From the NCBI GenBank assembly GCA_944390005.1, contig CALXOJ010000001.1, positions 144,363 through 208,362 on the forward strand: a DNA stretch of 64,000 bases. The letters run 5' to 3'. Shown piece after piece: positions 12,860 through 55,792 of the stretch. This DNA comes from an uncultured Spirochaetota bacterium (lineage in GTDB: Bacteria; Spirochaetota; Spirochaetia; JAFGXN01). The notes below the pieces were generated by a model that made no database searches, had not been told where the DNA came from, and saw only the letters and a list, made by a program, of their open reading frames with translations. Each line of letters begins with the position of its first letter. Position 1 is the stretch's first letter. Made by a program: the position numbers and the translations under genes.

Positions 12860-13177
12860 ATGACAAGTTATTCAGAAAAAGGAAAAGAAGTTTTAAATAG
12901 ATCGGGATTGTTTCCCGATTATGATGCGGCTTTTTGGTATTTTCTGAAAGGCGCGCAATCCGGTGAAAAAGACGCATTTTTCATGTTGGCTGAATGTTAT
13001 TTTCACGGTCTGGGAACGGATAAGGACTTGGACAAAGCGGATGTCTTCTATCACCTTGCAGAAAAGGCAGGCTGTAAAGTCGATCACATTATTTATGAAA
13101 AGATCGAAAACGGCGGCCGCAATTTGACGCAGGAAGAAATCGATAAAATTGTTGCTGAATTTTATTGCGCCGGGTGA
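12860..13177 (+). CDS. Sel1-like (TPR-family) repeat protein, small
   Basis: AECYFHGLGTDKDLDKA and LKGAQSGEKDAFFMLA match the Sel1 repeat consensus. Own AT-rich promoter region with an extended -10 (tgaTAGAAT). Confidence 0.6.
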   Translation: MTSYSEKGKEVLNRSGLFPDYDAAFWYFLKGAQSGEKDAFFMLAECYFHGLGTDKDLDKADVFYHLAEKAGCKVDHIIYEKIENGGRNLTQEEIDKIVAEFYCAG

Positions 13178-19077: not shown

Positions 19078-19905
19078 ATGAATTTATATGAAAACCTGCG
19101 GATCGGATTGACGTGGGTGCGGCCGGCTTTGGATATTCTGCTGCTGGCGTTTATCGTCTACTCCGTTTTGCACATTCTCCGAAAAGTTCCCGGCATTCGG
19201 CGGCTGGTAACGGTGGTCGCTGTTTTTTTTGCGTTTTATGTCGTTGCGTACATTTTGGATTTGCGGACCAACTTGTGGGTTTTTAATAAATTGATGGTTC
19301 TGGCCGGAATTGCAGTTATCGTTGCTTATCAATCGGAATTTAAGCAAATTTTTACACGGTTGGGCAGCGGCGGATTTTTCGGAGAGCCTTCCTCGTTGGC
19401 GCAAGAGGATCAAATCAAGAAAATCATTGATGCGCTTTATTATCTCTCTTCTGTCGGGAGAGGCGCTTTGATTGTCTTAGAGCGCCGCATCCGTCTCGAT
19501 ACGGTTGTTTCCAGCGGAACGAGAATTGACGCTGAGATCTCCTTTAATCTCCTCTGTTCGATTTTTGAAAAAGATACCCATCTTCACGACGGAGCTGTTT
19601 TGATTCGACAGGGGCGGCTTGAGGCGGCCGGATGCTTTTTACCGATGTCCGAACAGCGGGATTTGCGTTCGAGTTTCGGGACCCGTCACCGTTCCGCATT
19701 GGGAATGGCGGAAAACAGCGATGCGGTTGTTTTGATTGTGTCGGAAGAGACGCAGGCCGTTTCACTGGCGTTTGAATCGGAGTTTTTTTACGATTTAAAA
19801 CGAGACGAGTTGAGCTCTTATCTGAGCGGAATTTTTGAATTTGAAAGCGCGATTCGAGAACTTCCCGAATCTGCGGAACCGTCCGGGGGTTCCGATGAAA
19901 AATAA
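19078..19905 (+). CDS. cdaA: diadenylate cyclase (c-di-AMP synthase, DAC domain, 3 TM)
   Basis: DGA and RHR motifs (HLHDGAVLI...GTRHRSALG) with an N-terminal TM triplet. Confidence 0.9.
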   Translation: MNLYENLRIGLTWVRPALDILLLAFIVYSVLHILRKVPGIRRLVTVVAVFFAFYVVAYILDLRTNLWVFNKLMVLAGIAVIVAYQSEFKQIFTRLGSGGFFGEPSSLAQEDQIKKIIDALYYLSSVGRGALIVLERRIRLDTVVSSGTRIDAEISFNLLCSIFEKDTHLHDGAVLIRQGRLEAAGCFLPMSEQRDLRSSFGTRHRSALGMAENSDAVVLIVSEETQAVSLAFESEFFYDLKRDELSSYLSGIFEFESAIRELPESAEPSGGSDEK

Positions 19906-30383: not shown

Positions 30384-32507
30384 TTAATTCAAATCGATCC
30401 AACCTGATTGCTCTATCACTTTGTTAATAACGCCGTCGGCGGTTTCAAAAACGAAACGCATCGGTTCCAATGTGCGGATGTGTACCCTGCGGATGTCTTC
30501 ATCCGAAATAACGACATTGACCGTCCCGTTGGAGATTGAATCGATTCGGCAATGGTAACCGCGGACTTCTTTCGGTGATTCAGCATGAATGTAAGCTTTC
30601 CCAAAGAGGAATTCGTACAGCAGCAACGGCGCCTGAAAACGGCATGGTATTGATTTCTCGGAGTTTCCGTTAATAATTTCGCGGCTGCGGTTGATCAGCG
30701 AAGCTGTCGCATTTAGCGCCCGAATTAAATCGGTTTCGCGTCCGAGCGCCTCATATCGGAGCAGGGAAGCTTTTGCGTAAATTGCGGACGGATCAATTAA
30801 AGCTGCGGCATTTTCACCCGGAAGATTAAATGTTGATTGAAAGAAGGGGGAGGAATTTTCGTTTTGTATGTGGCATTCGATTGACCTGAGTAAGTTGCAG
30901 CCGGCTTGAAAAAAATCTCTTCGAACATCATCGTTGGCTGGTAACGTCGAATTTGAAAATTCAAGGAACTGCTCGGCTGTCGGCAATACTTTTTGAGCGG
31001 TCGTTTCGTCATAAATGAAATCTTTTTCTTTCAAATAAATCAAGGCTTTTGAGAGTACGGTTTCACACATTTCGGCTTCGGCGGTATTATTTTCGAGTCG
31101 GTTCTGTTGTGCGGCTGCCATAAAAGAAGAGAGCAGCATAGATGAAGAGGTGATATCTTCTTTGGTTTTCGCGTAGAAGATGTTTCCGCTTGGCAGCTGC
31201 ATTTTCGAAAAATATTCAACAATCAAATTGGCCGATTTTAAATCATCGTTCAATAACGCCAAATTAAGCAGAAAAATTCCCGCGTTCGGAGATGTCATCG
31301 AATCAGGATTAAACCGGTTATCCGATTTCCGAAGAAACAAATTTTTAATCGACTCGTAACGCCATTTTGAAAGCGGTTGATATTCGGTGAAAATTTTCCC
31401 GGCAAGGCAAATTAACAGATCCGCATAACAAATTTGGTCGGCGGATTCGGGAATGGGTGTAGTTGCCGCACGTTCGATTTCTTGTCTGAGAATTTCCCGC
31501 GGTTTTCGAAAGACTGTAAACCCGGCTGTCGTTTTTAACCCTTTTTCATTTTCGACAGTCATCAAATAAACTCCCGGATGATCAGTATCGGTTGATTCAA
31601 AGGAAATAAACGGCAGCGGTTTGGTTTCGTCCGAATTTACTTCGGCAATGTCAGAATTCCGGAAGGATTTCAAGACGGTTTCGTTGCCGTCCGGGTGCGT
31701 TAATGTCAATCGAACAGGCGTCTTTGTGTAAATTCGGCCGGAAATTGTTTCTCCGATAGAATAATAAGTTCGCTGCAAGTCGATAGTCGGAACATCAGAG
31801 ATATTTGAAATAACACTTTTTAAAGAATCGTTTGGCGGAACGGCGGCGATCGAAAATGCCCATTTTAATGTTTGATTGTAATCCGGCTGAATAAAATTTT
31901 CTTTTGAAAGCAAATCGATTTTGATTGTCTGATTCGTCTCGTCGAATTGAAGGTACGAAATGCGCTCAACGGTTTGCGGACAGGCGACGGCGACAGATTT
32001 TCCCTCCGGTGTCGTTAAACATCCCCATAATGTGTTGGACTCTTTTCGCAGAAACGTCGGATAATAAACCTCTTCAGCCGGAATTCCGCGAGAATTTCCT
32101 ATATCAATTCCGAATACAAGAGAAACGTCGTGCGGATCGGATTTTTTATGAGAAATTTTTTTCATCTCTATTTCAATAATAAATGAACGGGAGGCAATAT
32201 TGGGTCTGATAAACAGGGAGTATTTGATTCTGTCTCGGATACGGTAAAATTTATAAGGATTGATTTCTTCGGCCTTGAGATCCAATTTTTCCCCGTCAAT
32301 CCAGACGGAAGGTCCTGAAAGAGCGTCAGAGCGAAAAAAAAGCGGCGGTTGTTCTCTCGAAAGCCAAAGTTTATCGAATCTCGTAAAACGGCTGTCGGGA
32401 TAGTTGTCGCCGTCGGGATAAACGGCCCGGATATAAACCTGAGAATGGGCGGAAAATGTAAAAAGTACCGAAAGAACAAATAACAAAATTCCGTTCTTTT
32501 TTTTCAT
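30384..32507 (-). CDS. secreted 707-aa protein, unknown function (N-terminal beta-rich half, C-terminal helical repeat half)
   Basis: Signal peptide MKKKNGILLFVLSVLFTFSAHSQ. No catalytic motif recognised. Confidence 0.55.
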   Translation of the reverse strand: MKKKNGILLFVLSVLFTFSAHSQVYIRAVYPDGDNYPDSRFTRFDKLWLSREQPPLFFRSDALSGPSVWIDGEKLDLKAEEINPYKFYRIRDRIKYSLFIRPNIASRSFIIEIEMKKISHKKSDPHDVSLVFGIDIGNSRGIPAEEVYYPTFLRKESNTLWGCLTTPEGKSVAVACPQTVERISYLQFDETNQTIKIDLLSKENFIQPDYNQTLKWAFSIAAVPPNDSLKSVISNISDVPTIDLQRTYYSIGETISGRIYTKTPVRLTLTHPDGNETVLKSFRNSDIAEVNSDETKPLPFISFESTDTDHPGVYLMTVENEKGLKTTAGFTVFRKPREILRQEIERAATTPIPESADQICYADLLICLAGKIFTEYQPLSKWRYESIKNLFLRKSDNRFNPDSMTSPNAGIFLLNLALLNDDLKSANLIVEYFSKMQLPSGNIFYAKTKEDITSSSMLLSSFMAAAQQNRLENNTAEAEMCETVLSKALIYLKEKDFIYDETTAQKVLPTAEQFLEFSNSTLPANDDVRRDFFQAGCNLLRSIECHIQNENSSPFFQSTFNLPGENAAALIDPSAIYAKASLLRYEALGRETDLIRALNATASLINRSREIINGNSEKSIPCRFQAPLLLYEFLFGKAYIHAESPKEVRGYHCRIDSISNGTVNVVISDEDIRRVHIRTLEPMRFVFETADGVINKVIEQSGWIDLN

Positions 32508-36001: not shown

Positions 36002-36836
36002 AGACGATTCGTTCCCGACCGGCGGCATCCCGTAAAACGCCCGTTTCAGTATAACACAATTCTTCCATTTTGGCACGAATAATTTTCGTTTGATGGGGAG
36101 CCGCTTCCAACAGCAGTCGCCCGCCCGGATTTAGTTTAGCGGGTGCGCTGCTCAGAATGCGGAAGATCAGAGAAAGACCGTCGCCGCCGTCGGTAAGAGC
36201 CGGTTCCGGTTCATATAAATCGGGTTTGAGGTTTTCCATTTCCGTCAAACTGATATACGGCGGATTGGCGGCGATGATGTCGTATTGTCCGGGCAGGTTT
36301 TTCATCAAATCTCGTTTGAAGACAGTGACCTCCAAGCCGAGACGACGGAAATTACGTCTTGCCACTTTTAACGCGGCTGCGCTGATATCCGATGCGCAGA
36401 CCGTCCAACGCGGACGGGCGTTTTTTACTGCGGCGGCGATACAACCGGAACCGGTACAGAGATCGAGCACCCGTAACGGCTTATTCTTGTCACCGCTTTC
36501 AATGACGGCTTCGGCAAGCGTTTCGGTTTCCGATCGCGGAACCAAAACAGCCGGCGTGACATCCAAATCCAAGCCGAAGAAACAACGGCTTTTGGTAATG
36601 TAAGCGACGGGAACGCCGGCAAGACGTCGTCTCAAAAAGCGGTTAAATCTCCGCTTTACGTTTTCCGGAACCTTCTCGTCGGCTGCCAGAAGCAGCTGTG
36701 TCTGATTCAATCCCGATGCATATTCCGTAAGCAGCCGCACGTCCCACTGCGGTGAATCGAAATTTTCAGGAGAACGCGGCGGCGGCGCCTCTTTCAGTCG
36801 GCGAATTGCCTGCGTCTGCAGCTCTTTAAAAGTCAT
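35970..36836 (-). CDS. prmC: release factor glutamine N5-methyltransferase
   Basis: NPPY motif (IIAANPPYI) and SAM-binding LDLCTGSG. Confidence 0.85.
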
Positions 36837-37905
36837 CGTTGTCTGTCAACGCATCCTGGTTGGCGTTGATTTTCAACGCTTCGATTAATTCTTCCAGTTT
36901 TCCTTCCATTATTTGGTCGAGTTTATAAAGCGTTAAATTGATTCTGTGATCGGTCAGACGGTTCTGCGGAAAGTTGTATGTGCGAATCCGTTCGGAACGG
37001 TCTCCGCTTCCGACTTGGTGTTTTCGATCGGCGGCGCGTTCGGCTGCTTTTCGGGCTTCTTCCATTTCGTAAAGACGAGAGCGCAGCACCTTTATGGCCT
37101 TTGCTCGGTTCTTAATTTGAGATTTTTCGTCCTGGCAGGTGACCACTAACCCTGTCGGCAAGTGGGTTACGCGAACAGCCGAATCGGTCGTGTTGACGCT
37201 CTGTCCGCCGGGACCGGAAGAGCGGTAAACGTCGATTTTTAAGTCGTTTTCGTTGATTTCAATGTCGGTTTCTTCCGCCTCCGGCAAAACGGCGACGGTA
37301 ACGGCTGAAGTGTGGATGCGTCCGCCCGATTCGGTTGCGGGAATTCGCTGAACACGGTGAACGCCGCTTTCATAACGCAAATCGCCGTAAACTTCCCGCC
37401 CGCTGATATTGAAAATGATTTCTTTAAAACCGCCCAGTTCATTTTCATTGGAGGAGAGCACTTCGATCTTCCATTTTCGGGCATCGGCGTAATACGAGTA
37501 CATTCGGAAGAGATCGGCGGCAAAAAGAGCCGATTCGTCGCCTCCCGTCCCCGCGCGGATTTCCATAATAATATTTTTCAAATCGAGAGGATCCTTAGGA
37601 ATTAGCAGTTTTTTTAACTCCGCTTCCAGAATTTCTCTCTTTTTTTCACATTCTTTTAAATCTTCTTTGGCCAGTTCCCGCATCTCTTCGTCGGAGTCGT
37701 CTGTCATCAGTTCACGGCAGTCGCTGATTTGACGTTCGGTTTCTCTGTATTCGTCAAATTTTTGTTTAATTTCAAACAACGCGGCGTGTTCCGTTGTCAG
37801 TTCGCGGTAACGGCTGCGGTCGGCAATGATCGCAGGATCGGCCAGCAGTGCCTCGATTTTTTCGAAATTTTCGGCAATTTTTTCCAGTTTATCAAACATT
37901 CCCAT
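36826..37905 (-). CDS. prfA: peptide chain release factor 1
   Basis: GGQ motif (SGPGGQSVN) and PxT-region homology. Confidence 0.95.
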
Positions 37906-37988
37906 GACATTTTATTATACATTTTTTTCAACAAAAAACAAATGTTTTGAACCGCTTTCTTCGTTAAAAACGTATCGAAAATAAAAGT

Positions 37989-38018
37989 TTGACAACGAGT
38001 TCGGCAATCGGTTATAAT
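37989..38018 (+). promoter_or_regulatory. near-consensus sigma70 promoter abutting the sialidase start codon
   Basis: TTGACA (about 37989-94), 18-nt spacer, TATAAT (about 38013-18), then 6 nt to the ATG at 38025. Confidence 0.55.
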
Positions 38019-38024
38019 ATTCGC

Positions 38025-39692
38025 ATGAGAAAGATCAGCCTTGTGAGAAAAGTCGTTCTTATGACGACCCTTTTACCATTATTAATGTGCTCTGCGTCGT
38101 TTATGACGGAATTTGACCTGGTCTATGCCGGTGATACTTCAGGATCGGGATATTTTAGGATCCCTTCATTACTGACGCTGCGCAATTCCGACGGCTCTTT
38201 GACCGATACCGTTATTGCCGTTCAAGATGTTCGTTTTTCCGGTTTTGGGGATTCTCCCGCCAATATTGATTCCGGAATCCGTATCTCACACGATGCCGGA
38301 AGAACCTTTGATGAGCACCGCCTGCTTTCTCCGTATGCTTTCCGTGATGTAGCGGACGGCGAACGGCATAAATCCGATTCGGCTTCTTTCATTGACTGCT
38401 CGCTGTTTCAGAATTACGAAACGGGCCGCCTTTTTGTCACTGTCAACATGTTCCCGTGGGGCGGCGGTATCATGGGAGGAAATGTTGAAGCGGGTACGCC
38501 GTTTGTCGAAAAAGACGGCGAAACAGTCATGCTGTTGACAGCGACTACAGCAGCGGTTGACTTAATTGAAAGCGGAAAAGTTCCGGATTCCGAAAAAATT
38601 TGGAATTCTGCGCCGTCTTTGTCCGACGTCAGACAACTCGGAACATATTACGCGAAAAAAATCTCCGAATACCCTGTTTATCAAACCGACGCTTCGGGAG
38701 CGATTCGGTTCGATGAAAACGGGTACGCTTTGCTGAAGGAACCGTTCAAACGGGAAATTTACGATGAAAACGGCCGTTATACTAAATTCTTTTTAAACGA
38801 ACGGTATGAAGTGTGTTACGACGACGGAACCGACCGAGGAATCATTTTGAAAGTGGAGCAAATCGGCGGTGATGAAACCGTTCCGATGAACGCCGCGTTT
38901 AAATATTCGATTTTTCAAATGTTCCGTACTTCGTACAACTTCTTGATTTACAGCGATGACAAAGGGCAAACGTGGTCGGACCCGATCAATTTGACCGGTA
39001 TGATTCAAAAACCGACGGAAAACGTCACATACCAAATCGCATCGCCGGGAACCGGTCTTTATGTTGACCGCGGTCCTTACAAAGGAAGGGTGATGTTTGC
39101 CTGTTACACGAACGCTTCTCCCGACGGAACGGTGAAGGCGGAAGTGCCGGTTGCGGTTTGGTCGGATGATAACGGAAAGACGTGGACGCGCGGCGAGACG
39201 CTGACTGATTTGGGCGATACCGTCAAGATGTCGGAATCGGTTCTGACGGTGATGCCGGACGGGAACATCCGCATTTTTTCACGAACGGGATCGAGCCGGG
39301 TCGGTACGGCGCTCTCCCTTGACGGCGGAAAGACGTGGCAGACAGCTCAAAAAATCACAAAAATTTACAACTCCGGATCTTCCGGCTGTCAGATCACGGT
39401 ATTCAATTATCCCGATAAAATCGACGGCTGTGATGCGCTGATTTTGGCTTCGCCTCAATCGCTCGTTGCGCGAAGAAATGGAACGGTGTGGGTTGGATTA
39501 ATTCGCGACGATTCAGGAAACGAAATTGACTGGACTCCGACAAAGGTTCACGACGGCGCTTATGCGTACTCTTGCGCAGCTCCCTTGGCCATTTATTCCG
39601 AAAGAGGATTCCCCGCGGTCGGTCTCTATGCTGAATTGGAAGGCAACAGAATGCATTATGGGATTTTATCGTTTGATGATTTGCACCATTAA
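38025..39692 (+). CDS. exo-alpha-sialidase (BNR/Asp-box, GH33-like)
   Basis: FRIP motif (YFRIPSLLTL) plus four Asp-boxes: SHDAGRTF, SDDKGQTW, SDDNGKTW and SLDGGKTW. Signal peptide present. Confidence 0.8.
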   Translation: MRKISLVRKVVLMTTLLPLLMCSASFMTEFDLVYAGDTSGSGYFRIPSLLTLRNSDGSLTDTVIAVQDVRFSGFGDSPANIDSGIRISHDAGRTFDEHRLLSPYAFRDVADGERHKSDSASFIDCSLFQNYETGRLFVTVNMFPWGGGIMGGNVEAGTPFVEKDGETVMLLTATTAAVDLIESGKVPDSEKIWNSAPSLSDVRQLGTYYAKKISEYPVYQTDASGAIRFDENGYALLKEPFKREIYDENGRYTKFFLNERYEVCYDDGTDRGIILKVEQIGGDETVPMNAAFKYSIFQMFRTSYNFLIYSDDKGQTWSDPINLTGMIQKPTENVTYQIASPGTGLYVDRGPYKGRVMFACYTNASPDGTVKAEVPVAVWSDDNGKTWTRGETLTDLGDTVKMSESVLTVMPDGNIRIFSRTGSSRVGTALSLDGGKTWQTAQKITKIYNSGSSGCQITVFNYPDKIDGCDALILASPQSLVARRNGTVWVGLIRDDSGNEIDWTPTKVHDGAYAYSCAAPLAIYSERGFPAVGLYAELEGNRMHYGILSFDDLHH

Positions 39693-39698
39693 TCGGAT

Positions 39699-39730
39699 CG
39701 AGCGCTCCTTTGGGAGCGCTTTTGTCTTTT
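39699..39730 (+). terminator. rho-independent terminator
   Basis: AGCGCTCC-tttg-GGAGCGCT followed by TTTGTCTTTT. Confidence 0.8.
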
Positions 39731-39779
39731 AACGCTTTTTCCGGTTGATTTCTTTCGCAATTCCGGATAAACTGAGCCC

Positions 39780-40649
39780 ATGAAAAATACACTGCTCGTT
39801 GTGCTTGTTTTCATTTTACTTTCCGGCTGTGTGGTTTGGAAAAGCGCCCGCTCTGTTGAATCACCGCAGACAGACGGTAAAATCACCGATACGGCTCAAA
39901 AAATCGTCTTTGATACAGAAAAAGCGCCGGAATCTTCCGGTGTCGAGAACATTTTCGGAGATGAGAATTACTTCATCACTCACGGCGACAGTTTTTGTCC
40001 ATCGGCCGTTTACGGAATGCAGGTTAAGAACGGAGAGGTTGTTCGGTATGACGAGTTCCGTTTGAAAGGCGGTTCTCAATTTGATTGGGAAGACACAGCC
40101 TCCTCAGTTGATGAAAACGGAAACCGAACGCTCTATTTGGCCGATATCGGCGATAATCTGCGTTTTCGGACGCGGAAAACAATCTATCTTATTACCCGAA
40201 TCGAAAACAACCGCGCTGTCGTTGATCGAAAAATCCGATTCCGTTGTGTCAAAGACGGAAAAACCGTGTATGCTGATACCGAATCGCTGTTTTTTTACGA
40301 CGGAGCGTTGTATGTTATGACTAAAAATTCCGGAAAGGCGCTGATGTTTCGAATTCCGCTTGATGAAGGAGATCGAGTCGATGCCGAATTTGTGCAATCG
40401 GTTTCCATTCCCTCTCTCATTACTTCTGCGGCCGCAACCGACGACGGCTCTGTTTTGGCGATTCTGTCGCTTGGGTACCTGTATTTTTACGATATTTCCG
40501 ACGGAATGGACGAACTTGACTCCAAAGTAATGAAGATTTACTCTTCATCCGGCTGCCGTCAATGCGAAGGCGTTTGTTTTACCCGCGACGGAAGAGTTGC
40601 CGTGACCAACGAACAAGGCGAATTATATCTTTTTTCGGTCGACTTTTAA
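39780..40649 (+). CDS. lipoprotein, unknown function (beta-propeller-like repeats suspected)
   Basis: Lipobox LLSGC. Repeated segments such as LYLADIGDN and GVCFTRDGRVAVTNEQGELYLF. Confidence 0.5.
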   Translation: MKNTLLVVLVFILLSGCVVWKSARSVESPQTDGKITDTAQKIVFDTEKAPESSGVENIFGDENYFITHGDSFCPSAVYGMQVKNGEVVRYDEFRLKGGSQFDWEDTASSVDENGNRTLYLADIGDNLRFRTRKTIYLITRIENNRAVVDRKIRFRCVKDGKTVYADTESLFFYDGALYVMTKNSGKALMFRIPLDEGDRVDAEFVQSVSIPSLITSAAATDDGSVLAILSLGYLYFYDISDGMDELDSKVMKIYSSSGCRQCEGVCFTRDGRVAVTNEQGELYLFSVDF

Positions 40650-40909
40650 GGATCGGTACTCTCTTCTGAGGTTGTTTGCAGTCGCTCCAGCTCTTGCGTT
40701 AAACGGAGATTTTCGGCTTTTAACTCTTCGTTTTCTTTCATGAGTGCCTGTGCGGAAGCGACAGCCTTTTTATCTTCGGTAAAGTTATCAATGATGCCGT
40801 AGCGTTCCAAGAAAAAGAACAGAAGAATATATGGAATAACAATCAGAAAAGAAACAATAATGCGTCTGACGGTGATTTTATAATCTTTATCGTTTGTCGG
40901 CTTTGTCAT
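40646..40909 (-). CDS. small membrane protein with TM segment + coiled coil (FtsB/DivIC-like?)
   Basis: 87 aa with a TM helix followed by a leucine heptad (ELKAENLRLTQELERL). Confidence 0.4.
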   Translation of the reverse strand: MTKPTNDKDYKITVRRIIVSFLIVIPYILLFFFLERYGIIDNFTEDKKAVASAQALMKENEELKAENLRLTQELERLQTTSEESTDP

Positions 40910-41397
40910 GAAACCTCCTTTTTTGATATTATCCTGTTTTCATGAAAAAGTCAAATCACTTCTTAATTCAAAACTTGAATTGATTTTGAATGAAAATTAA
41001 GTGAGAAATTCGATTCTTTATGCTCTTCCGTCAATGGCTCCCGGGTTTGAAAACGGCTTTTCGGAAGCGGTGACTGAAACCGCCTCGGTCGTTTTGCCTT
41101 CTTCTTGGCTGCCGTTTTGCTCTTCAACGACAGATCGAGAGAGAAGCGCTTATATGCTGAATAATATGATGTCATTTCGTAAATATGCCTCATCGCGCCG
41201 CTGTTCCGCAGAACGGTTAATGGACAATCGAAAGATTTTAGTTGGAACCCCGGCGGCCGGTCATAACAGCGCATTTTTTTTCAGTTAAATTTGGCGCTTT
41301 TCTGTTGTGTCGGAATTTCCGATTGCATGGGGATTGCAAAGAACAATGGAATATGGTAAAAAGAAATATTGAATTTTGTTCGATCACCGAGGTTTTT

Positions 41398-44958: not shown

Positions 44959-46056
44959 ATGCAACTGTTTTTTAAAGGAATCGTTTTATTGGCGGCCATG
45001 ATCTTTGTCTCCTGTCCCGGGAAACCGGCGGCGGTATCGGGCTTGACAATCGACCGCACGGAACTGAATTTGAAGCTGGGGCAGGAACAGACGGTGAATG
45101 CGTCGGTTCTTCCGGGGGAGGCTGGCGAAAAGGGAATCCGCTGGTCGAGCGATGCCCCGCAAACCGTTTCCGTAGCGGGCGGCCGCATTCGCGGGGTTTT
45201 GCCGGGGACGGCGACTGTGACGGCCGAGACCGTTGACGGCGGTTTTCGGCAGCAGTGCCGGGTGACGGTGGCCGATGAGGTTTACATTCCCGATCCGCTT
45301 TTCCGCTCCTATCTGTTTTCGCTTTTCGGCGAAAATTCGGAAACGGGAGAGAAACAGATCGATCTCGATGCGGACGGCATTATCACATTAAAAGAGGCGG
45401 AAACGGTTACGGTGATTCACTGCTACAAACTGTCAAACACACCTTCGGAAGAAAAGATTGCCGATTTGACCGGTCTCGAATATTTTGTCAATCTGGAAGA
45501 ATTGGCGTGTCACTACAATAAAATCGAATCTCTCGATTTGCGGTCGCTTTCGAAACTGCGTCGTCTTTACTGCTTTGATAATCGTTTAAGAGAGCTCGAT
45601 CTTTCCGGAAATCCGCTGCTGACGGAGGTCTCCTGCGGAGGCAATACGCTGAAACAGTTGAGTCTCGAAGCAAACCCGTTTCTTGTTACGGTTGATGCCG
45701 GGGAATGCCGCCTCGAAGAGCTGGATCTGACCGGTTTGCCGGAATTGGAATATCTGGTCTGTTCGCAAAATCGTCTGCGCTCGCTCGATGTTTCCCGTAA
45801 TCCGAAGCTGATTCATTTAAGCTGCTACAATAATTACATGGATCGGCTCGATGCCCGAAATTGTCCGAATCTCGATTTTCTCTGGTGCGGACAGCAGATC
45901 AACGAAGCGGAAGGAATGTACAATTTGAAACTTTCTCTTTATCTGCCCCAATCGTTGTGGGACAGATGGGAGAGTGACGAAACGTGGGGAAAGCCGGGTT
46001 CGGACGGATATCCTGCCGAAACGGCCAACACCTGGGTGACCCTTATTAAAGAATGA
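44959..46056 (+). CDS. surface lipoprotein: Big_2 Ig-like domain + EF-hand-like loop + ~9 leucine-rich repeats + conserved W-rich C-terminus
   Basis: Lipobox FVSC. Big_2 unit (GLTIDRTELNL...CRVTV), DLDADGIITLKEAE loop, and 22-residue LRRs (LxxLxCxxNxLxxLDLSxNPxL). Confidence 0.75.
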   Translation: MQLFFKGIVLLAAMIFVSCPGKPAAVSGLTIDRTELNLKLGQEQTVNASVLPGEAGEKGIRWSSDAPQTVSVAGGRIRGVLPGTATVTAETVDGGFRQQCRVTVADEVYIPDPLFRSYLFSLFGENSETGEKQIDLDADGIITLKEAETVTVIHCYKLSNTPSEEKIADLTGLEYFVNLEELACHYNKIESLDLRSLSKLRRLYCFDNRLRELDLSGNPLLTEVSCGGNTLKQLSLEANPFLVTVDAGECRLEELDLTGLPELEYLVCSQNRLRSLDVSRNPKLIHLSCYNNYMDRLDARNCPNLDFLWCGQQINEAEGMYNLKLSLYLPQSLWDRWESDETWGKPGSDGYPAETANTWVTLIKE

Positions 46057-46087
46057 AAACCATCGAATCGTATTGAGGAGGAGTTTT

Positions 46088-48448
46088 ATGAAAATGTTTG
46101 TTCGCTGTTGGGGAATGGTTTTGCTGCTCGCTTTGGCAAGCTGTGAAAAGGATTCGGCAAAAGTGTCCGGAATAACGGTAACGCCTGCATCGGTGACACT
46201 GGAGGCGGGGAAGACGGTTTCGCTGAAAGCCGCTGTTGTGCCCGAAACGGCAGCCGATAAAACTGTCCGGTGGGAATCGGAAAATCCGGCTGTTGCCGAC
46301 GTCACCGCTTCCGGAGTCGTGACGGCCAAAGCCGCCGGCGAGACGTCCGTGACAGCTGTCACGACCGACGGAAATTACCGGGCTTCCTGTCTGATAACCG
46401 TTATCGGCAAAACGGACGTTACGGGAGTCCGAATCGACGAGACGTTTCCGGTTCCGGTGGGAAAAGAAGTCGGTTTAAATTATGCGGTTCTGCCGACCGA
46501 TGCCTCCGTGAAAACGGTTTTGTTTACGGTCGAAGAGGGGAAAGAAGATGTCCTGACGCTTGAAGATTCCAATCGCGGTATCGTGAAAGGGGTTGCTGTC
46601 GGTGCGGCACAGGTGACGGTGACCACCGCGGAAGGCGGGTACAGCGACAGTTGTGCCGTGACGGTTTACCGGGCAGCGGAAAAGGTGACGATAACGGCCG
46701 ACGGTTACGAGGCTGCCGCCGGGTTGGAGGCCGGGCTGACGCTTGCGCTGACGGCGACCGTTTCCGGAGAGCCGACTTACGGCACCGTTTTCTGGGCAAC
46801 GTCCGACCCGCAAACCGCCGCTGTCGCTGCGGACGGCACGGTCACGGCCAAAGCACCGGGCACCGTTACCGTGCGGGCTTCGCTGCACCCGTTCGACAAC
46901 CCCGATTACCCTGCCGATGTCACGGCGGAGATCAAAATCGACATTGTCGCGGGCAGTGCCGCTGTCGAATCGGTTGCAATTAACGAAGGCGAAACCGTTA
47001 CGATGTTCAAGGGAGAGACAAAGCAGCTGACCTGTACGGTCAATCCCCCGAATGCCTCAGAGAAAACAGTGGTTTGGAGTGTCACAGAGGGGGCCGATGT
47101 CGTTTCCGTCAATGCCGATACGGGAGAAGTGACGGCGCTCCGTCCGGGAAGTGCGACCGTAACGGTTACCTCGCGATCCGATGCTGCCAAATCGGACAGC
47201 TGTACCGTTACGGTTCGGGAGGCTGTCACCGCCGTCCGGTTGGACCGCGACAGTCTGCGGCTGACGCTGACCGAAGACGGCAAAACGGAAACCCTGACCG
47301 CTGCGGTCGAACCGGAAGAAGCGACTGACCGCAGCGTTCGGTGGACAGCCGATCCCGACGGGATTGTCTCTGTTGAGAATGGGACAGTGACCGCACTGAA
47401 CGCCGGAACGGCAACCGTTCGCGCCGAATCGGTTTCCAATCCGGGAGTTTACGATGAATGCGAAGTGACGGTGATTTCTCCCGTCACGCAGATTACGCTG
47501 AATCATTCAGTTTACCCCGCAGCTCCGGGAACATTCGAAGTCGGCCTCGATTTCGTTTTGAGTGCGGCGGTGACGCCCGGCGACGCGACAGACAAACGGC
47601 TGACTTGGAGTGTTTCACCCGAAAACATTGTTTCATTGGATGACGCAACCGGAACCGTAACCGCGTTAGAAGCCGGAACCGCTACCGTTACGGTGACCGC
47701 CGCCGACGGCTTCGGGGCATCGGCCTCGTGTGTTATCACCGTCTCTCCGGCAACGGCAGCCGTCACAAAAATTGTTTTGAATCGGGAGAGTGTGAACCTT
47801 TATAAAGGAAAAAGTTACCGTCTGACAGCATCCGTCGAACCGCCCAACGCCGCTGTTAAAACCGTCACATGGAGTCTCGAAGGAGGCGATGGGGCGGCAA
47901 CGATTTCGGACGACGGTCGTCTGAGTGTCAATTCAAATGCCGGCGCGGCCATGTTTACGGTGAAAGCGACCGCCGGAGACGCTTCCGGAGTGACAGCAAC
48001 CTGCGCGGTCACGGTTCGTACGGAACTGATTCCCGCAGGAGCGCTGTTCGATGCCGTTGCCGCCGCGACCGGCAAACAGAACTTCACGGAATCCGACCTG
48101 GAAAACGTCTCCGAACTGGAGGTTGTCGCGGCATCTGGAACAACAGCTCTGTACGGTCTGGAGCTGATGCCGAATCTGCTCTCGCTTGACTGCAGCGGCG
48201 GATTTTTGACCGATCTGGATACTTCGATGAATCTGGAACTCGAAACGCTGATTTGCAACGGCAATTATTTGGAAAAGCTCGATTTGCGTTCGAATTCGGC
48301 ATTGAAGAATCTGCTCTGCGGAAATCAGATTGGTCAGATTGGATTAAAAAAAGTCCCTCTTTATCTGCCTTCTTCTTTATGGGAGAGGTGGGATAATGAA
48401 TGGAGTCGGAACGGTTCCAATAACAACGTCACTCTTGTCAGAGAATAA
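46088..48448 (+). CDS. surface lipoprotein paralog: seven tandem Big_2 domains + LRRs + conserved C-terminus
   Basis: Lipobox LASC. Seven units of about 85 aa each ending ...C.VTV; C-terminal LYLPSSLWERW motif. GAGGAGG ribosome-binding site. Confidence 0.75.
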   Translation: MKMFVRCWGMVLLLALASCEKDSAKVSGITVTPASVTLEAGKTVSLKAAVVPETAADKTVRWESENPAVADVTASGVVTAKAAGETSVTAVTTDGNYRASCLITVIGKTDVTGVRIDETFPVPVGKEVGLNYAVLPTDASVKTVLFTVEEGKEDVLTLEDSNRGIVKGVAVGAAQVTVTTAEGGYSDSCAVTVYRAAEKVTITADGYEAAAGLEAGLTLALTATVSGEPTYGTVFWATSDPQTAAVAADGTVTAKAPGTVTVRASLHPFDNPDYPADVTAEIKIDIVAGSAAVESVAINEGETVTMFKGETKQLTCTVNPPNASEKTVVWSVTEGADVVSVNADTGEVTALRPGSATVTVTSRSDAAKSDSCTVTVREAVTAVRLDRDSLRLTLTEDGKTETLTAAVEPEEATDRSVRWTADPDGIVSVENGTVTALNAGTATVRAESVSNPGVYDECEVTVISPVTQITLNHSVYPAAPGTFEVGLDFVLSAAVTPGDATDKRLTWSVSPENIVSLDDATGTVTALEAGTATVTVTAADGFGASASCVITVSPATAAVTKIVLNRESVNLYKGKSYRLTASVEPPNAAVKTVTWSLEGGDGAATISDDGRLSVNSNAGAAMFTVKATAGDASGVTATCAVTVRTELIPAGALFDAVAAATGKQNFTESDLENVSELEVVAASGTTALYGLELMPNLLSLDCSGGFLTDLDTSMNLELETLICNGNYLEKLDLRSNSALKNLLCGNQIGQIGLKKVPLYLPSSLWERWDNEWSRNGSNNNVTLVRE

Positions 48449-48467
48449 TATAGGAAAGGAGCGAAAA

Positions 48468-49586
48468 ATGAAAAAGATCTTCAGTTGTATTGCTGCTGTA
48501 TGGATGTTGGCTTCCTGCGATCCGGTAACGGATCCGGTGAAGGCAACCGGTATCGAGATCCGACCTTCGTCGGTGACTTTGGAAATCGGAAAAACGGAAG
48601 AACTGACGTTTGCGGTTTTGCCGGAGCAGGCGGTTCAGAAAGTTCTTTGGGAAAGTTCGAATGAAAAAATCGTTACGGTGAAAGAAGGAAAAGTGACGGC
48701 AATAGCTGCCGGGAAAGCCGAAGTGAAAGCGGTCGTTGCCGAAAATAAAAGTCTGACGGCTGTCTGTACGGTGACCGTTACCGCGCCGGAACCGGAAGAA
48801 AAACCCGTAACGGGACTGACGCCGACTCCGGCAGTCGATCAGCCGGTTTCTCTTACCGTCGGCGGAACGCAGACATTTAGTGTCGCCGTCGTTCCGGAGG
48901 ATGCCTCAAACCCTGCCGTGAACTGGAGCGTCGATAACGAAGCCGTCATCACGCTGAGTGCCTCAACCGGAATGTCCGTAACGGTGACCGCCGCCTCTGC
49001 CGGTACCGCTGTCGTCACCGCCGTCTCGGCCGACAACGGTGAGGTTTCCGTTTCGTGGACGGTGACCGTCACCGAGCCGGTACCGGAGAGCCTGAATCTG
49101 GAGACAGATGTTCCCGATGTGGCATTCCGTGACGTGCTGAAAAAATTTGATACGGACAATGACGGAATCGTGTCCCGGGCGGAAGCGGATGCGGTTACGG
49201 AACTCATTTGTGAAGACTGGAATGATACTATAATCGATTTAACCGGCATTGCTTTCTTCACAAATCTTGAAACACTCTCCGTTCAGGGGGAACGTCTCGA
49301 ATCTGTCGATTTGAGCGGAAATCGGAAATTGAAACACATTGACCTTCGTTATAATGCAATCAGGAAACTTGATTTAACGGCTCTGGATCAGTTGCAGGAA
49401 TATAAAACCAATACCGCAGGGACGGTTGTTTACGGTTTACAGATCGGCCATCAGGGTGAGTCTGACGGAGATGAAATTTCCGTTATTCTTTCAGATGTGT
49501 ATAAGGATGTCTGGGATCGGACATGGAGTCAGCCGATCTCCGAATACAGTACACCGAATAAGGGCGTGATCGCTACCTTTCGTTAA
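48468..49586 (+). CDS. surface lipoprotein paralog: two Big_2 domains + EF-hand/dockerin-like loop + LRRs
   Basis: Lipobox LASC. DTDNDGIVSRAEAD loop. AAAGGAG ribosome-binding site. Confidence 0.75.
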   Translation: MKKIFSCIAAVWMLASCDPVTDPVKATGIEIRPSSVTLEIGKTEELTFAVLPEQAVQKVLWESSNEKIVTVKEGKVTAIAAGKAEVKAVVAENKSLTAVCTVTVTAPEPEEKPVTGLTPTPAVDQPVSLTVGGTQTFSVAVVPEDASNPAVNWSVDNEAVITLSASTGMSVTVTAASAGTAVVTAVSADNGEVSVSWTVTVTEPVPESLNLETDVPDVAFRDVLKKFDTDNDGIVSRAEADAVTELICEDWNDTIIDLTGIAFFTNLETLSVQGERLESVDLSGNRKLKHIDLRYNAIRKLDLTALDQLQEYKTNTAGTVVYGLQIGHQGESDGDEISVILSDVYKDVWDRTWSQPISEYSTPNKGVIATFR

Positions 49587-53043: not shown

Positions 53044-54264
53044 TTAGCCCTTCAGCCAATCGGCCGCCGACGACGATTCGAATGCGCCTGCGCCTTTTTC
53101 CAGCAGCGTTTCCGCAACGGCGGCAGAGAGCGGCTGCGGCGTTTCTCCGTACACAGAGCGGACAAACTCTTCCATGGAAATATCGTTGATCATGCGGGCC
53201 GGAATGTAGCCCCGATTCATGCTGTCGGCGCGAATTAAAAATCGGCGGTTTTCCAATAAGTCGGCTGCCTTTGAGACGTCCCGGTCAGGCACCTGCAAAC
53301 GCGCGCAAATTTCGTTAAACGTACAGATACCGTTTCCGGACTTGAATTTTTCGCAGACGGCTGCCAACACCGCAAAGGTCAGCGAAATGATATAAGCAGG
53401 AGAATCCTCTCTCCGTTTGCGCGTCAGGTAAACGCCGTACTGATGCACGTAAGCCGTTTCAGCGGAAATCAAAATCGCAACCCACAGACAGTAAATCCAC
53501 AGCAGAAAAAGAAAAAGAAACGCAAATGAGCCGTAAATCGTGGTATTTTGTGTAAAAAAAAGCGAAGTGTTGCGAAAAACAAGGCTGACAACTTGCCAGC
53601 AGACTGTTCCGACCACAGCGCCGAGTGCCGCCGAGCGGTAGCGCACCTTTGTTGCCGGCAGCGTTTTAATCAGCAGCAAAAGCGCTGAAAAAACAATCAG
53701 TACCGGAACCGTCAGAAAAAGAAATCCATTGATGTCGCCGATGTCAAGTATTCTCGGTAAAAATGTTTTGGCAACTGTTGAAATACTGATAGAGAGGCTG
53801 ATAAACAGCGTTCCGATGACAAGATTCGTCACATAACCGGCAAACTGACGGAACTGCGGACGTTGAGAGGTGCTGCGGAAAATCGAATTAAAAACGGCTG
53901 AGATTTTGTTCATCAGAAAGACCGATGTCACCAGAAATGAGATGACTCCAAAGACGCCGAGTGAGCGCGCGTTACTGACAAACTGTTCGATTAAACCGAT
54001 AATTTTCTCCTGCATCGGCGCTTCAAAGAGGCGAAGCTGTTCGGCAAAATCGGTTTTGAGAATGTCAACTCCGCCGAAAGCGGCAAATAAAGCGGTGACA
54101 ACCGCAAAAAAGGGCACAAGCGACATCAGGGTCGAGTAAACAAGACTCGAGGAGAGGATAAATCCGTTGTCTTTATAAAATTCGAGGGTGACGGATTTGA
54201 CGAATTCATACAAATCGGTCAGCTTTGAACGAAGTGAGGTGCGCAGCCGCGTACAGACATCCAT
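53044..54264 (-). CDS. YihY/BrkB-family membrane protein with C-terminal cytoplasmic extension
   Basis: LVYSTLMSLVPFFAVVTALFAAFGG signature and six TM segments, plus about 110 extra C-terminal residues. Confidence 0.8.
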   Translation of the reverse strand: MDVCTRLRTSLRSKLTDLYEFVKSVTLEFYKDNGFILSSSLVYSTLMSLVPFFAVVTALFAAFGGVDILKTDFAEQLRLFEAPMQEKIIGLIEQFVSNARSLGVFGVISFLVTSVFLMNKISAVFNSIFRSTSQRPQFRQFAGYVTNLVIGTLFISLSISISTVAKTFLPRILDIGDINGFLFLTVPVLIVFSALLLLIKTLPATKVRYRSAALGAVVGTVCWQVVSLVFRNTSLFFTQNTTIYGSFAFLFLFLLWIYCLWVAILISAETAYVHQYGVYLTRKRREDSPAYIISLTFAVLAAVCEKFKSGNGICTFNEICARLQVPDRDVSKAADLLENRRFLIRADSMNRGYIPARMINDISMEEFVRSVYGETPQPLSAAVAETLLEKGAGAFESSSAADWLKG

Positions 54265-54352: not shown

Positions 54353-55792
54353 ATGAGCGGATTGTCTTTAAAAGGGAAACGATTTTTTTTCGTCGGAATC
54401 AAAGGAACCGGAATGTGTGCGCTGGCGGAGCTGTTCCAAAAAGCGGGCGCATTTGTCTGCGGTGCGGACGGATTTGAGCGGTTTTACACCGATGATATTT
54501 TGAAAGATTTGGGAATTCCGGTTTATGAGGGAATGGAGAGCCTCCATTTGGATTCGTCGTTTGATGAGGTCGTCTTTTCGGCCGCTTATACAGAAAAAAA
54601 TTCTGCCGATTTAGCGGAGGCGCGTCGGTTGAATCTTCCGATGTTGACATACCCGCAGGCACTCGGTCGGCTTTCCCGACTGCAGCCGTCAGCGGCAGTT
54701 TCCGGCGTGCACGGAAAAACAACAACGGCGGCTCTGTGTGCGTCTCTGGCTAAAGCCATGGATTTGGATGTTTCGGTTCTCATCGGTTCGGCAGCAGCCG
54801 ATTTAAACAATCGCTGCACCTTTACCGGAGGAGATCGTTTTTTCATTGCGGAAACGTGCGAATATCGCCGTCATTTTCTCTCATTTTCTCCGACCGTCAT
54901 GATTCTGACAAGCGTTGAAGAGGATCATCCCGATTATTTTAAAAATTTTGATGATATTCGCTCGGCTTTTATCGAATTGGCGGATCGATTGCCCGATGAC
55001 GGAACGCTGATTTATTGCGCTGACGATGCGGGAGCAGCCGAAACAGCCGCTCTTATCGCCGAGCGGCGGCCGTCTTTGGAACAAATTCCTTATGGACTGA
55101 AGGCCGACGGACGCTTTCGGATTTTTGACAACGAAGAACGGCTGGGCGTCAACCGCTTTCGGTTGTCGTTTGACCCGACCCGAGAGTGGCGTTTGCGTCT
55201 GCCGGGACATCACTTCATCCTTAACGCGGCGGCGGCTTTGGCAGCGGTATCGGTCATTTTGCGGCGGCTCGAATTGCCGTTCGATGAACCGATGCGGGAA
55301 AAAGCGGCTGCCGGGTTGTCGGCGTTTGCCGGCTGCAAACGCCGCACTGAACGGATCGGTGAAGCTGGCGGCGTTCTGTTTATGGATGATTACGCTCACC
55401 ATCCGACTGCCATTCAAACCACTTTGCTCGGATACAAAACGTTTTTTCGTCCGAAACGGCTGATTGTTGATTTTATGTCGCACACCTATTCGCGGACGGA
55501 ACGGCTTCTGGACGAATTTGCGTCGGCTTTTTCTGCGGCCGATATCGTGGTTCTGAATAAAATTTATGCCTCCGCTCGGGAAACCGTCGGTTCCGTCACC
55601 GGCGAAACGCTGTACGAAGAGACAAAAAAACGCCATCCGTGCGTTTACTATTGTCCCGAGTTCGAAGATGCCGAAAACTTTTTGAAGACGGTTTTGCAGC
55701 CGGGGGATTTGTTTGTCACAATGGGAGCCGGAAATAACAACATTATCGGAAACAATTTGTATGAGTTTTTGAAGCGTAATGAAAATTCGTAA
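54353..55792 (+). CDS. murC: UDP-N-acetylmuramate--L-alanine ligase (Mur ligase family)
   Basis: Mur-ligase N-terminal domain (FFVGIKGTGMCALAE), P-loop GVHGKTTT, C-terminal domain. Confidence 0.75.
   Translation: MSGLSLKGKRFFFVGIKGTGMCALAELFQKAGAFVCGADGFERFYTDDILKDLGIPVYEGMESLHLDSSFDEVVFSAAYTEKNSADLAEARRLNLPMLTYPQALGRLSRLQPSAAVSGVHGKTTTAALCASLAKAMDLDVSVLIGSAAADLNNRCTFTGGDRFFIAETCEYRRHFLSFSPTVMILTSVEEDHPDYFKNFDDIRSAFIELADRLPDDGTLIYCADDAGAAETAALIAERRPSLEQIPYGLKADGRFRIFDNEERLGVNRFRLSFDPTREWRLRLPGHHFILNAAAALAAVSVILRRLELPFDEPMREKAAAGLSAFAGCKRRTERIGEAGGVLFMDDYAHHPTAIQTTLLGYKTFFRPKRLIVDFMSHTYSRTERLLDEFASAFSAADIVVLNKIYASARETVGSVTGETLYEETKKRHPCVYYCPEFEDAENFLKTVLQPGDLFVTMGAGNNNIIGNNLYEFLKRNENS

Follow-up and report, generated by a model that had tools for sequence, protein, structure and literature searches.

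What would an uncultured spirochete do with a sialidase gene whose promoter ends six nucleotides before a start codon, and where would translation of that gene begin? The gene lies in the 64-kb stretch of DNA that we analyzed (the window), which comes from an uncultured Spirochaetia lineage, and only about nine close homologs were found, all of them metagenomic. With moderate confidence, we read it as encoding an envelope-anchored GH33 exo-alpha-sialidase, likely hydrolytic, that has its own conserved promoter and is translated leaderless from the ATG at 38025; the transcription start site (TSS), start codon, product, localization, and role are what we infer. The features on which this reading draws are collected in Table 1.

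Table 1. Predicted features of the sialidase gene and its downstream neighbor, in window coordinates.
Feature	Coordinates	Strand	Basis or remark
-35 hexamer TTGACA	37989..37994	+	sequence read and promoter scan
-10 hexamer TATAAT	38013..38018	+	18-nt spacer from the -35 hexamer
ATG, candidate leaderless start	38025..38027	+	7th base after the -10 hexamer is the predicted (inferred) TSS
Signal peptide with possible lipobox LLMC (Cys22)	38025..38090	+	sequence; AF2
GH33 exo-alpha-sialidase CDS (predicted)	38025..39692	+	555 aa from ATG, 549 aa from GTG
GTG, in frame, rival start with 18-nt SD-less leader	38043..38045	+	homologous start in all orthologs
FRIP motif, aa 44-47 (Arg45 of arginine triad)	38154..38165	+	motif and alignment
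Asp-box 1, SHDAGRTF, aa 88-95	38286..38309	+	
Asp-box 2, SDDKGQTW, aa 310-317	38952..38975	+	
Asp-box 3, SDDNGKTW, aa 380-387	39162..39185	+	
Met402-Ser403-Glu404 (Glu404, catalytic Glu; Met402, at the Thr position that defines intramolecular trans-sialidases)	39228..39236	+	alignments to RgNanH and NanI
Asp-box 4, SLDGGKTW, aa 431-438	39315..39338	+	
Tyr515, nucleophile, AYSC motif	39567..39569	+	aligned with NanI YAYSC and leech NanL SYSC
Intrinsic terminator (9-bp stem, 4-nt loop, T-run)	39700..39731	+	hairpin scan and folding
Downstream-gene promoter TTGATT-N17-TAAACT	39745..39773	+	ends 6 nt before its ATG, also leaderless geometry
Partner gene, 289-aa lipoprotein (LSGC lipobox), five-bladed beta-propeller	39780..40649	+	YjiK / plant-type glutaminyl-cyclase fold

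The encoded sialidase and its predicted reaction

By sequence and by fold model, the product is a GH33 exo-alpha-sialidase with all catalytic residues, and its activity is predicted from these. The initial annotation had called it an exo-sialidase from a FRIP motif and four Asp-boxes (S-x-D-x-G-x-T-W), all of which we recover, and the complete catalytic set, Pfam, PDB matches, and the fold model uphold it. The open reading frame has BNR_2 and BNR matches in Pfam, and its PDB sequence matches are RgNanH of Ruminococcus gnavus (2e-50), leech sialidase L, NanI, NanJ, NanB, NanA, and NanC. Residues R45/R420/R483, D76, and Y515/E404 align with R257/R575/R637, D282, and Y677/E559 of RgNanH; across an 18-sequence alignment that reaches down to 30% identity, there is no variation at R45, R70, D76, E404, R420, or Y515, and almost none at R483. 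The AF2 model (pLDDT 90.6, pTM 0.89) is a six-bladed beta-propeller with an inserted domain, an architecture of the NanI/RgNanH type, and its best Foldseek matches are RgNanH, NanI, NanL, and NanA (target TM 0.78-0.84; E = 1e-40 for RgNanH/NanI). The protein lacks the CBM40 lectin module. Its predicted mechanism would use Tyr515/Glu404 as the nucleophile pair, Asp76 as acid/base, and Arg45/Arg420/Arg483 as the arginine triad.

The enzyme is probably hydrolytic, given the residues at the positions that define intramolecular trans-sialidases (IT-sialidases), and would most likely release free Neu5Ac from terminal positions of host glycans. In IT-sialidases, a Thr at position -2 from the catalytic Glu pushes the glycerol group into an axial orientation, and a Trp-Tyr hydrophobic stack lines the active-site rim; their product is 2,7-anhydro-Neu5Ac, and they are strictly specific for alpha2-3 linkages. 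The top PDB match prompted us to consider that the window protein is such an enzyme, like RgNanH, NanB, and NanL, and releases a product usable by specialized organisms only. RgNanH is its best full-length match in the PDB by both sequence and fold, the inserted-domain architecture is shared, and no nan cluster lies nearby. However, the signature residues led us to reject this identity, which we consider improbable. Met402 (K-M-S-E) stands at this -2 position, where RgNanH has T-A-E and the hydrolytic NanI has L-T-E; the Tyr of the stack (RgNanH Tyr607) aligns with Ser453/Gly454; and no Trp follows W503 in the C-terminal 52 residues, where the alignment itself is weak, which excludes a Trp at Tyr+21. 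The C-terminal half also scores slightly closer to NanI. Finally, the GFO/IDH/MocA-family neighbor found in relatives, a candidate for a NanOx/YjhC-type 2,7-anhydro-Neu5Ac oxidoreductase, is instead a GH109 enzyme (E = 2e-101 to 6t2b, but only about 1e-4 to YjhC/NanOx).

The initial annotation called the enzyme secreted, but its signal peptide ends in LLMC22, four residues before the first propeller strand, which points to membrane anchoring. AF2 predicts a helix over residues 6-19, with low confidence over 16-24. The possible lipobox reads MLMC in relatives at 86% identity, while some of the 86% variants have Ser at this position and relatives at 54-66% have Gly/Ser; Met at -1 is atypical of a canonical lipobox. 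We consider the sialidase probably membrane-anchored rather than secreted.

Promoter, start codon, and leader

The promoter that the initial annotation described as near-perfect matches the sigma-70 consensus at 12 of 12 positions. By concordant sequence read and promoter scan, the six bases attcgc (38019-38024) separate TATAAT from the ATG at 38025-38027. The exact pattern TTGACA-N16-18-TATAAT occurs nowhere else on either strand of the 64-kb window, where base composition predicts 0.028 instances. The promoter is more than a chance match because it is kept at the same place in all orthologs examined, with -35 variants TTGACA, TTGCAA, TTGCCA, and TTGACT and -10 variants TATAAT, TATGAT, TATTAT, TATAGT, and TAAACT. 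Its spacer is 17 nt in every ortholog, one base shorter than the 18 nt of the window gene, and the 119-bp region between prfA and the sialidase is otherwise poorly conserved among orthologs. An Rfam scan of the whole window returned no RNA families, and the 5' end of the sialidase mRNA has no unusual predicted structure (z = -0.8).

The geometry of a -10 hexamer directly before a start codon is not unusual for this organism. We counted, as a signature, -10 hexamers with at least five of six consensus bases that end 5-8 nt before an ATG. The signature is present at 6 of 56 window genes, all with a weak or no Shine-Dalgarno (SD) sequence, that is, at 6 of 29 weak-SD genes vs none of 27 SD-bearing genes (Fisher p = 0.015). 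Across nine loci, 175 gene starts carry 20 such hexamers (in 19 genes; 11.4%), compared with 5 among 927 internal ATGs (0.5%), and the distances peak sharply at 5-6 nt; some 11% of the clade's gene starts thus share this geometry. At two genes the arrangement is conserved across species while the intervening bases diverge: prfA (TATAAT, 5-8 nt, ATG) and a gene for a 708-aa protein (TTGACA-N17-TAnAAT, 5 nt, ATG). Published work describes leaderless mRNAs as frequent in Leptospira and also documents them in Borrelia.

Against this background, the leaderless or near-leaderless mRNA proposed in the initial annotation is plausible on the basis of a predicted TSS, though the proposal stands only in part: the geometry fits exactly and an SD is missing, but the orthologous start is the GTG at 38043, 18 nt downstream. 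Duplex energies with the anti-SD sequence are -2.9 kcal/mol before ATG 38025 and -2.7 before GTG 38043, both equal to background (-3.06), so neither codon is preceded by an SD. In all orthologs, the same promoter is followed by a leader of some 20-30 nt that carries an SD (-4.9 to -8.6 kcal/mol). A shortened leader that lacks an SD and has an ATG at the predicted +1 occurs only in the window species, all examined strains of which keep ATG 38025. According to the leaderless reading, transcription would start at ATG 38025 or at most 2 nt away, and the leaderless mRNA would be translated without an SD. The leaderless state would be derived: in sister species, translation would begin at the counterpart of GTG 38043, whereas in the window species the leader is 6 nt shorter, its SD has decayed, and the in-frame ATG at +1 would add MRKISL to the signal peptide.

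A serious competitor, to which we give a sizable though minority chance, is that translation proceeds from the ancestral GTG 38043 behind an SD-less leader of about 18 nt, with the ATG at +1 incidental or a minor start. In the N-terminal alignment (VRKVVLMTTLLPLLMCS vs V/MKKLIFCLVIAPMLMCS), GTG 38043 coincides exactly with the annotated start of each ortholog, the resulting 549 aa equal the ortholog length, and an 18-nt leader is near the length seen in relatives (roughly 20-24 nt). In addition, both differences among strains fall within these 18 nt (T/C at 38021 and A/G at 38028, the latter making codon 2 after ATG 38025 AGA [Arg] here and GGA [Gly] in every other strain), and the six extra codons occur in the window species only; this combination of polymorphism and species restriction is the pattern expected of an untranslated leader. 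The protein sequence does not discriminate between ATG and GTG, because both starts yield an acceptable signal peptide. What weighs against the GTG is the lack of an SD that every ortholog leader carries; in bacteria, a GTG start that has no SD generally initiates poorly. Moreover, an in-frame ATG, with no stop before the GTG, sits exactly at the canonical +1, and the GUG falls within a weak stem of the predicted 5' fold.

It is very improbable that the perfect promoter is non-functional and that upstream transcription yields a long leader with a start at TTG 37989 or another upstream codon: many automated calls do give 567 aa beginning at TTG 37989, and a weak promoter-like site (9 of 12) lies at 37889-37918 on the + strand, but this TTG belongs to the -35 hexamer itself and lacks an SD, the 12 added residues (MTTSSAIGYNIR) are translated promoter with no ortholog counterpart, and the promoter keeps its position in all orthologs within a prfA spacer that is otherwise poorly conserved. 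Public gene calls place the sialidase start at six different positions, one of them inside the -35 box, and we attribute the conflict to gene callers that take no account of leaderless genes in this clade. Database variants of 524-543 aa were considered as disrupted N-termini; the DNA there is intact and identical, so these are gene-caller choices.

Terminator, partner gene, and neighborhood

The clean intrinsic terminator noted in the initial annotation is borne out by a G+C-rich hairpin (stem 39700-39721) of -19 kcal/mol followed by a T-run (z = -3.5; none of 200 shuffles folds as well), and sialidase transcription would end there. A comparable 3' hairpin is present in the relative at 86% identity and in none of the relatives at 54-66%. 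Whether the gene is monocistronic, as had been proposed, depends on the species: the window gene ends at a terminator of its own and a separate promoter precedes its downstream neighbor, but more distant relatives have an operon in which the sialidase gene is joined with, or overlaps with, the propeller lipoprotein gene that follows it.

This partner gene directly follows the sialidase gene at all orthologous loci. The protein has no Pfam, NCBIfam-level, or PDB sequence match and was placed by fold comparison only. Its homologs at 44-46% identity are paralogs in housekeeping contexts with no adjoining sialidase, so the pairing is specific to the adjacent copy. A more speculative scenario, which we regard as rather unlikely, is that a pair of sister species with 86% identical sialidases would record how one gene recently changed from SD-led to leaderless translation, by a leader shorter by 6 nt, SD decay, and a new in-frame +1 ATG that lengthens the signal peptide; a new terminator and a new leaderless promoter would at the same time have divided an ancestral sialidase-lipoprotein operon; and the propeller partner, which has a YjiK / glutaminyl-cyclase fold, would help in sialoglycan processing as an accessory factor not described before.

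As the initial annotation stated, nan catabolic genes are not adjacent to the sialidase, and Pfam detects none in the 64-kb window; DHDPS/NanE/ROK and sugar-transporter families are likewise absent among window genes and from ortholog flanks. The initial annotation had suggested that the enzyme may serve glycan unmasking or adhesion instead of catabolism. In most relatives, a homolog of GH109 alpha-N-acetylgalactosaminidase adjoins the sialidase module, which favors a role in trimming host O-glycans. A tblastn search of the window found no GH109 remnant.

Implications and comparison with known systems

If active, the enzyme would allow an uncultured and probably host-associated spirochete lineage to remove sialic acid from host glycans, and in most relatives it would act alongside the GH109 alpha-N-acetylgalactosaminidase; this would bear on mucin foraging or immune evasion (cf. 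Treponema denticola). The enzyme is an ordinary one, and the current understanding of sialidases and of leaderless translation is unchanged. The general value is methodological, as public start calls were misled in a clade with leaderless genes; the pair of leadered and leaderless orthologs also offers a compact natural test case of leader loss.

In the leaderless mRNAs of Leptospira interrogans, Borrelia burgdorferi, Mycobacterium, and Deinococcus, the -10 element is followed after about 6-7 nt by an ATG that serves as TSS and start codon at once, and the sialidase is arranged likewise with respect to its predicted TSS. Those systems lack an SD and have many such genes per genome, a signature that we also see in the present clade. 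The sialidase differs from them in that its TSS is a predicted one and in that the leaderless state is found in one species, whereas its orthologs are leadered.

Among characterized enzymes, the hydrolytic GH33 sialidase NanI of Clostridium perfringens (PDB 2bf6/5tsp) has in common with the window protein the fold with an inserted domain, the Arg triad, the Asp, and the Tyr/Glu pair, as well as the YAYSC nucleophile motif. It is the best PDB match of the C-terminal half, the fold comparison gives a target TM of 0.83-0.84, and at -2 from the catalytic Glu both proteins have a large hydrophobic residue (Leu in NanI, Met here). The two are, however, only 26-27% identical; the window protein lacks a CBM40, has Gly in place of the Tyr before the CQ motif, has an inserted region that seems larger by alignment bookkeeping (query TM 0.68), and is probably membrane-anchored, unlike NanI. 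The IT-sialidases RgNanH, NanB, and NanL share the catalytic and inserted-domain architecture, but the window protein has no equivalent of Thr557 (Met402), Tyr607 (Ser/Gly), or Trp698 and, unlike these enzymes, is found without a CBM40 and with no NanOx-type oxidoreductase or dedicated transporter nearby.

The characterized spirochete sialidase is Td-NanH (TDE0471) of Treponema denticola, a GH33 exo-sialidase from a host-associated species. No Treponema sequences occur among the 58 homologs of the window protein, and Td-NanH, unlike it, has a separate N-terminal domain (PMC12889680). Td-NanH removes sialic acid from serum proteins and has a part in serum resistance (PMC12889680), which is the type of non-catabolic function that the initial annotation had proposed for the window gene.

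Promoter and start codon of the sialidase gene

The sequence was read over 37700-39900. The sialidase ORF (555 aa, spanning ATG 38025 to stop 39692) lies behind a promoter scoring 12/12 in a consensus scan. The initial annotation called this promoter unusually strong; its hexamers are perfect consensus matches, but its spacer is 18 instead of 17 nt. An exact TTGACA-N16-18-TATAAT occurs once in the 64-kb window on both strands, compared with 0.028 expected from base composition. The initial annotation had described this promoter, the ATG, the FRIP motif, the four Asp-boxes, and the terminator, and its sequence observation is borne out in every detail.

Features of the sialidase, its surroundings, and its relatives (window coordinates unless a locus is named; relatives labeled by sialidase protein identity)
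Feature	Position	Strand	Description
-35 hexamer	37989-37994	+	TTGACA; sequence reading, consensus scan
-10 hexamer	38013-38018	+	TATAAT; 18-nt spacer after -35
Bases between -10 and ATG	before ATG at 38025	+	attcgc, six bases; sequence reading
Automated start calls	37989-38103		six starts, protein cluster P0001
FRIP motif	residues 44-47
Good Asp-boxes	residues 88-95, 310-317, 380-387, 431-438
Terminator	39700-39721		9-bp G+C-rich hairpin, then T-run; fold -19 kcal/mol, z = -3.5
Partner gene	39780-40649	+	289-aa product, canonical lipobox LSGC17
Leaderless-type geometry, SD-less genes	30384-32507(-), 36826-37905(-), 19078-19905(+), 53044-54264(-), 54353-55792(+), 9818-12709(-), 39780-40649(+)
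708-aa unknown			TTGACA-N17-TAGAAT-5-ATG
prfA			TATAAT-8-ATG
Mur ligase gene			TTGAAA-N17-TAAAAT-5-ATG
Promoter, 86% species			TTGACA...TATAAT
Promoters, 64-66% species			TTGCAA...TATGAT or TATTAT
Promoter, 61% species	L007		TTGCCA...TATAGT
Promoter, 54% species	L008		TTGACT...TAAACT
87-aa protein gene	40646-40909	-
103-aa ORF	40963-41274	-
Big_2 repeat protein genes	44959-49586	+
Aldose 1-epimerase	59805-60731	-
GH18 domain protein	62349-63131	+
GH109 homologue	L002 13027-14433; L004 12979-14385; L007 13045-14451; L008 8083-9483; L013 about 12997-14400
Sialidase paralogue	L014 10001-11584		contig CASEOG010000004.1
Arginine triad	R45 / R420 / R483		RgNanH Arg257 / Arg575 / Arg637
Acid/base	D76		RgNanH Asp282
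O4-binding	R70		RgNanH Arg276
Nucleophile pair	Y515 / E404		RgNanH Tyr677 / Glu559

All orthologous loci have a sigma-70-type promoter at the matching position, with a 17-nt spacer. After the -10 box, every orthologue has 18-36 nt with a Shine-Dalgarno (SD) sequence (AGGAG, AAGGA, GAGGAG, or AGAGGAG), and these leaders give anti-SD duplex energies of -4.9 to -8.6 kcal/mol. In the alignment, the orthologue start codons, GTG or ATG, fall precisely on the window's GTG 38043 (VRKVVLMTTLLPLLMCS vs V/MKKLIFCLVIAPMLMCS), from which the product is 549 aa, the orthologue length. Compared with the 86% sister, the distance from -10 to this GTG is 24 nt rather than 30 nt, and the SD position reads AAAGAT rather than CAGGAG; the duplex energy before GTG 38043 (-2.7 kcal/mol) equals the genomic background (-3.06). 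ATG 38025 begins at the seventh base past -10, in frame with the GTG and with no stop between. Every strain of the species, at 96.6-98% DNA identity, keeps the promoter and the ATG; these strains differ from the window at two bases in the -10-to-GTG stretch (ATTCGC ATG AGA in the window vs ATCCGC ATG GGA elsewhere). A signal peptide is workable from either start.

On balance, we favor transcription in this species from A38025 or 1-2 nt upstream, giving a leaderless mRNA translated from ATG 38025, an arrangement that would have arisen from an ancestor with a leader and SD-dependent initiation. The main alternative, less likely but quite possible, is that translation continues to begin at the ancestral GTG 38043, behind a leader of 18 nt that lacks an SD; this would fit both the polymorphism in codon 2 and the six extra residues that have no orthologous counterpart. 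What fits leaderless initiation is that the SD is completely lost and that the ATG is placed exactly and in frame.

The same geometry recurs elsewhere. In six of the 56 window genes (sialidase, prfA, cdaA, a BrkB-family gene, a Mur ligase gene, and a 708-aa unknown), a match of at least 5/6 to TATAAT ends 5-8 nt before the first ATG. None of the six has an SD (6/29 weak-SD genes vs 0/27 SD genes; Fisher p = 0.015), and two further genes, one of them directly 3' of the sialidase, share this spacing but have -10 boxes that match less well. Across nine clade loci, the signature is found at 11.4% of 175 gene starts vs 0.5% of 927 internal in-frame ATGs, a count that takes in orthologues and hence events that are not fully independent; its distance peaks sharply at 5-6 nt. 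The geometry is kept for prfA in five species (TATAAT, 5-8 nt, ATG) and for the 708-aa gene in six loci (TTGACA-N17-TA(G/A/C)AAT, 5 nt, ATG), with changing bases between. By transcription start site mapping, leaderless mRNAs are common in Leptospira interrogans and present in Borrelia burgdorferi. Leaderless expression is credible in the window organism and not peculiar to the sialidase gene, whose translation-initiation architecture is probably leaderless, normal for the genome and known for the phylum. The leadered-to-leaderless difference between close species is of modest interest.

So is the systematic mis-annotation of start codons in public data. The public cluster is dominated by a 567-aa form that starts, as does the cluster representative, at the TTG of the -35 hexamer, an annotation artefact. 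Automated calls for this protein place six starts (567, 555, 549, 543, 529, and 524 aa) on DNA that is intact and nearly identical.

Operon structure, localization, and genomic context

The gene had been described as monocistronic. This holds for the window species and for its 86% sister, both with a terminator and an independent promoter (TTGATT-N17-TAAACT/TAATCT) ahead of the next gene, but not for more distant relatives. In those, the sialidase and partner genes either lie 43-61 nt apart with no terminator between them or overlap at stop and start; thus, the ancestral unit was a two-gene operon. The partner, a propeller lipoprotein with no Pfam or PDB sequence match, is encoded next after the sialidase in every orthologous locus, and its conservation is also of modest interest. 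Convergent to the partner gene and kept in all relatives is a gene with a strong SD for an 87-aa protein (one transmembrane helix plus coiled coil; weak FtsL/DivIC/ZapB-like matches).

The enzyme was initially annotated as secreted. Its N-terminus is instead a hydrophobic helix ending LLMC22, with the first propeller strand directly after (four residues past Cys22), which suggests that the enzyme stays at a membrane, either as a lipoprotein or through a signal anchor. Because the 54-66% relatives lack Cys22, lipidation cannot count as a conserved trait.

A search of 5.8 billion proteins yielded just nine close homologues (54-97% identity), every one from a Logan/ENA metagenome assembly; the next is 34% identical. 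In a scan of species-representative genomes, orthologues were confined to MAGs labeled uncultured Spirochaetes, Spirochaetales, or Spirochaetia. The genome of orthologue locus L012, alone among these, also has a second sialidase, a paralogue (L014; 57% identical) whose frame runs on upstream into an extra N-terminal region and which is not followed by a propeller partner gene.

The genes around the sialidase have housekeeping roles (among them prfA, prmC, relA/spoT, ispD, and ldh). Neither nanA/nanE/nanK nor a sialic-acid transporter turned up when essentially all genes of the window were scanned with Pfam, in agreement with the initial annotation that no nan genes are adjacent. Most relatives have a GH109 alpha-N-acetylgalactosaminidase homologue (468 aa; 2e-101 to PDB 6t2b) two genes 3' of the sialidase, and this association favors a putative role in host O-glycan trimming. 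The homologue has no trace in the window and is also missing from strain-level relatives and from orthologue loci L009/L010. Within the stretch that replaces the relatives' GH109 gene cluster, the window has a 103-aa ORF, low-complexity and basic with no family match, that is probably not a real gene. Elsewhere, three consecutive Big_2 (bacterial Ig-like) repeat protein genes with strong SDs, one with LRRs, probably encode surface proteins. The GH18 domain protein and aldose 1-epimerase near the window end are carbohydrate-active with no sialic acid link.

Enzyme identity and reaction class

With this sialidase, an uncultured spirochaete adds a further member to a well-known enzyme family. It matches Pfam BNR_2 and BNR, and its best full-length PDB sequence match is the R. 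gnavus intramolecular trans-sialidase (IT-sialidase) RgNanH (2e-50); other top matches are leech sialidase L, C. perfringens NanI and NanJ, and pneumococcal NanB, NanA, and NanC. When the C-terminal half is searched alone, hydrolytic NanI is marginally on top. The RgNanH equivalents in the table were assigned with the RgNanH paper numbering and HMMER alignments. In an 18-sequence alignment reaching down to 30% identity, R45, R70, D76, E404, R420, and Y515 are invariant, and R483 nearly so. The AlphaFold2 model from this alignment is confident (pLDDT 90.6, pTM 0.89), and its best Foldseek PDB matches are RgNanH, NanI, NanL, NanA, NanJ, NanB, and NanC (target-normalized TM 0.78-0.84). Lower query-normalized TM (0.67-0.71), along with alignment bookkeeping, suggests that the domain inserted between propeller blades may be larger than that of NanI. 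A CBM40 lectin module is absent.

Two features define IT-sialidases: a Thr at -2 from the catalytic Glu, by which the glycerol side chain is positioned for attack on C2, and a Trp-Tyr stack responsible for desolvating the active site. In the window sialidase, the Thr position is occupied by Met402, and RgNanH Tyr607 aligns with Ser453/Gly454. RgNanH Trp698 lies 21 residues past the nucleophile and has no equivalent here: the sequence has no Trp beyond residue 503 and therefore no candidate for that role. With these signature residues absent, membership in the IT-sialidase class fails, and we consider an intramolecular trans-sialidase very unlikely. At the catalytic Glu, the window enzyme reads K-M-S-E, whereas RgNanH reads T-A-E and hydrolytic NanI reads L-T-E, and NanC has Ser-582 where the window enzyme has Met402. 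Judged from its residues, the window sialidase very likely catalyzes a conventional hydrolytic reaction, the better inference, rather than the intramolecular reaction of RgNanH.
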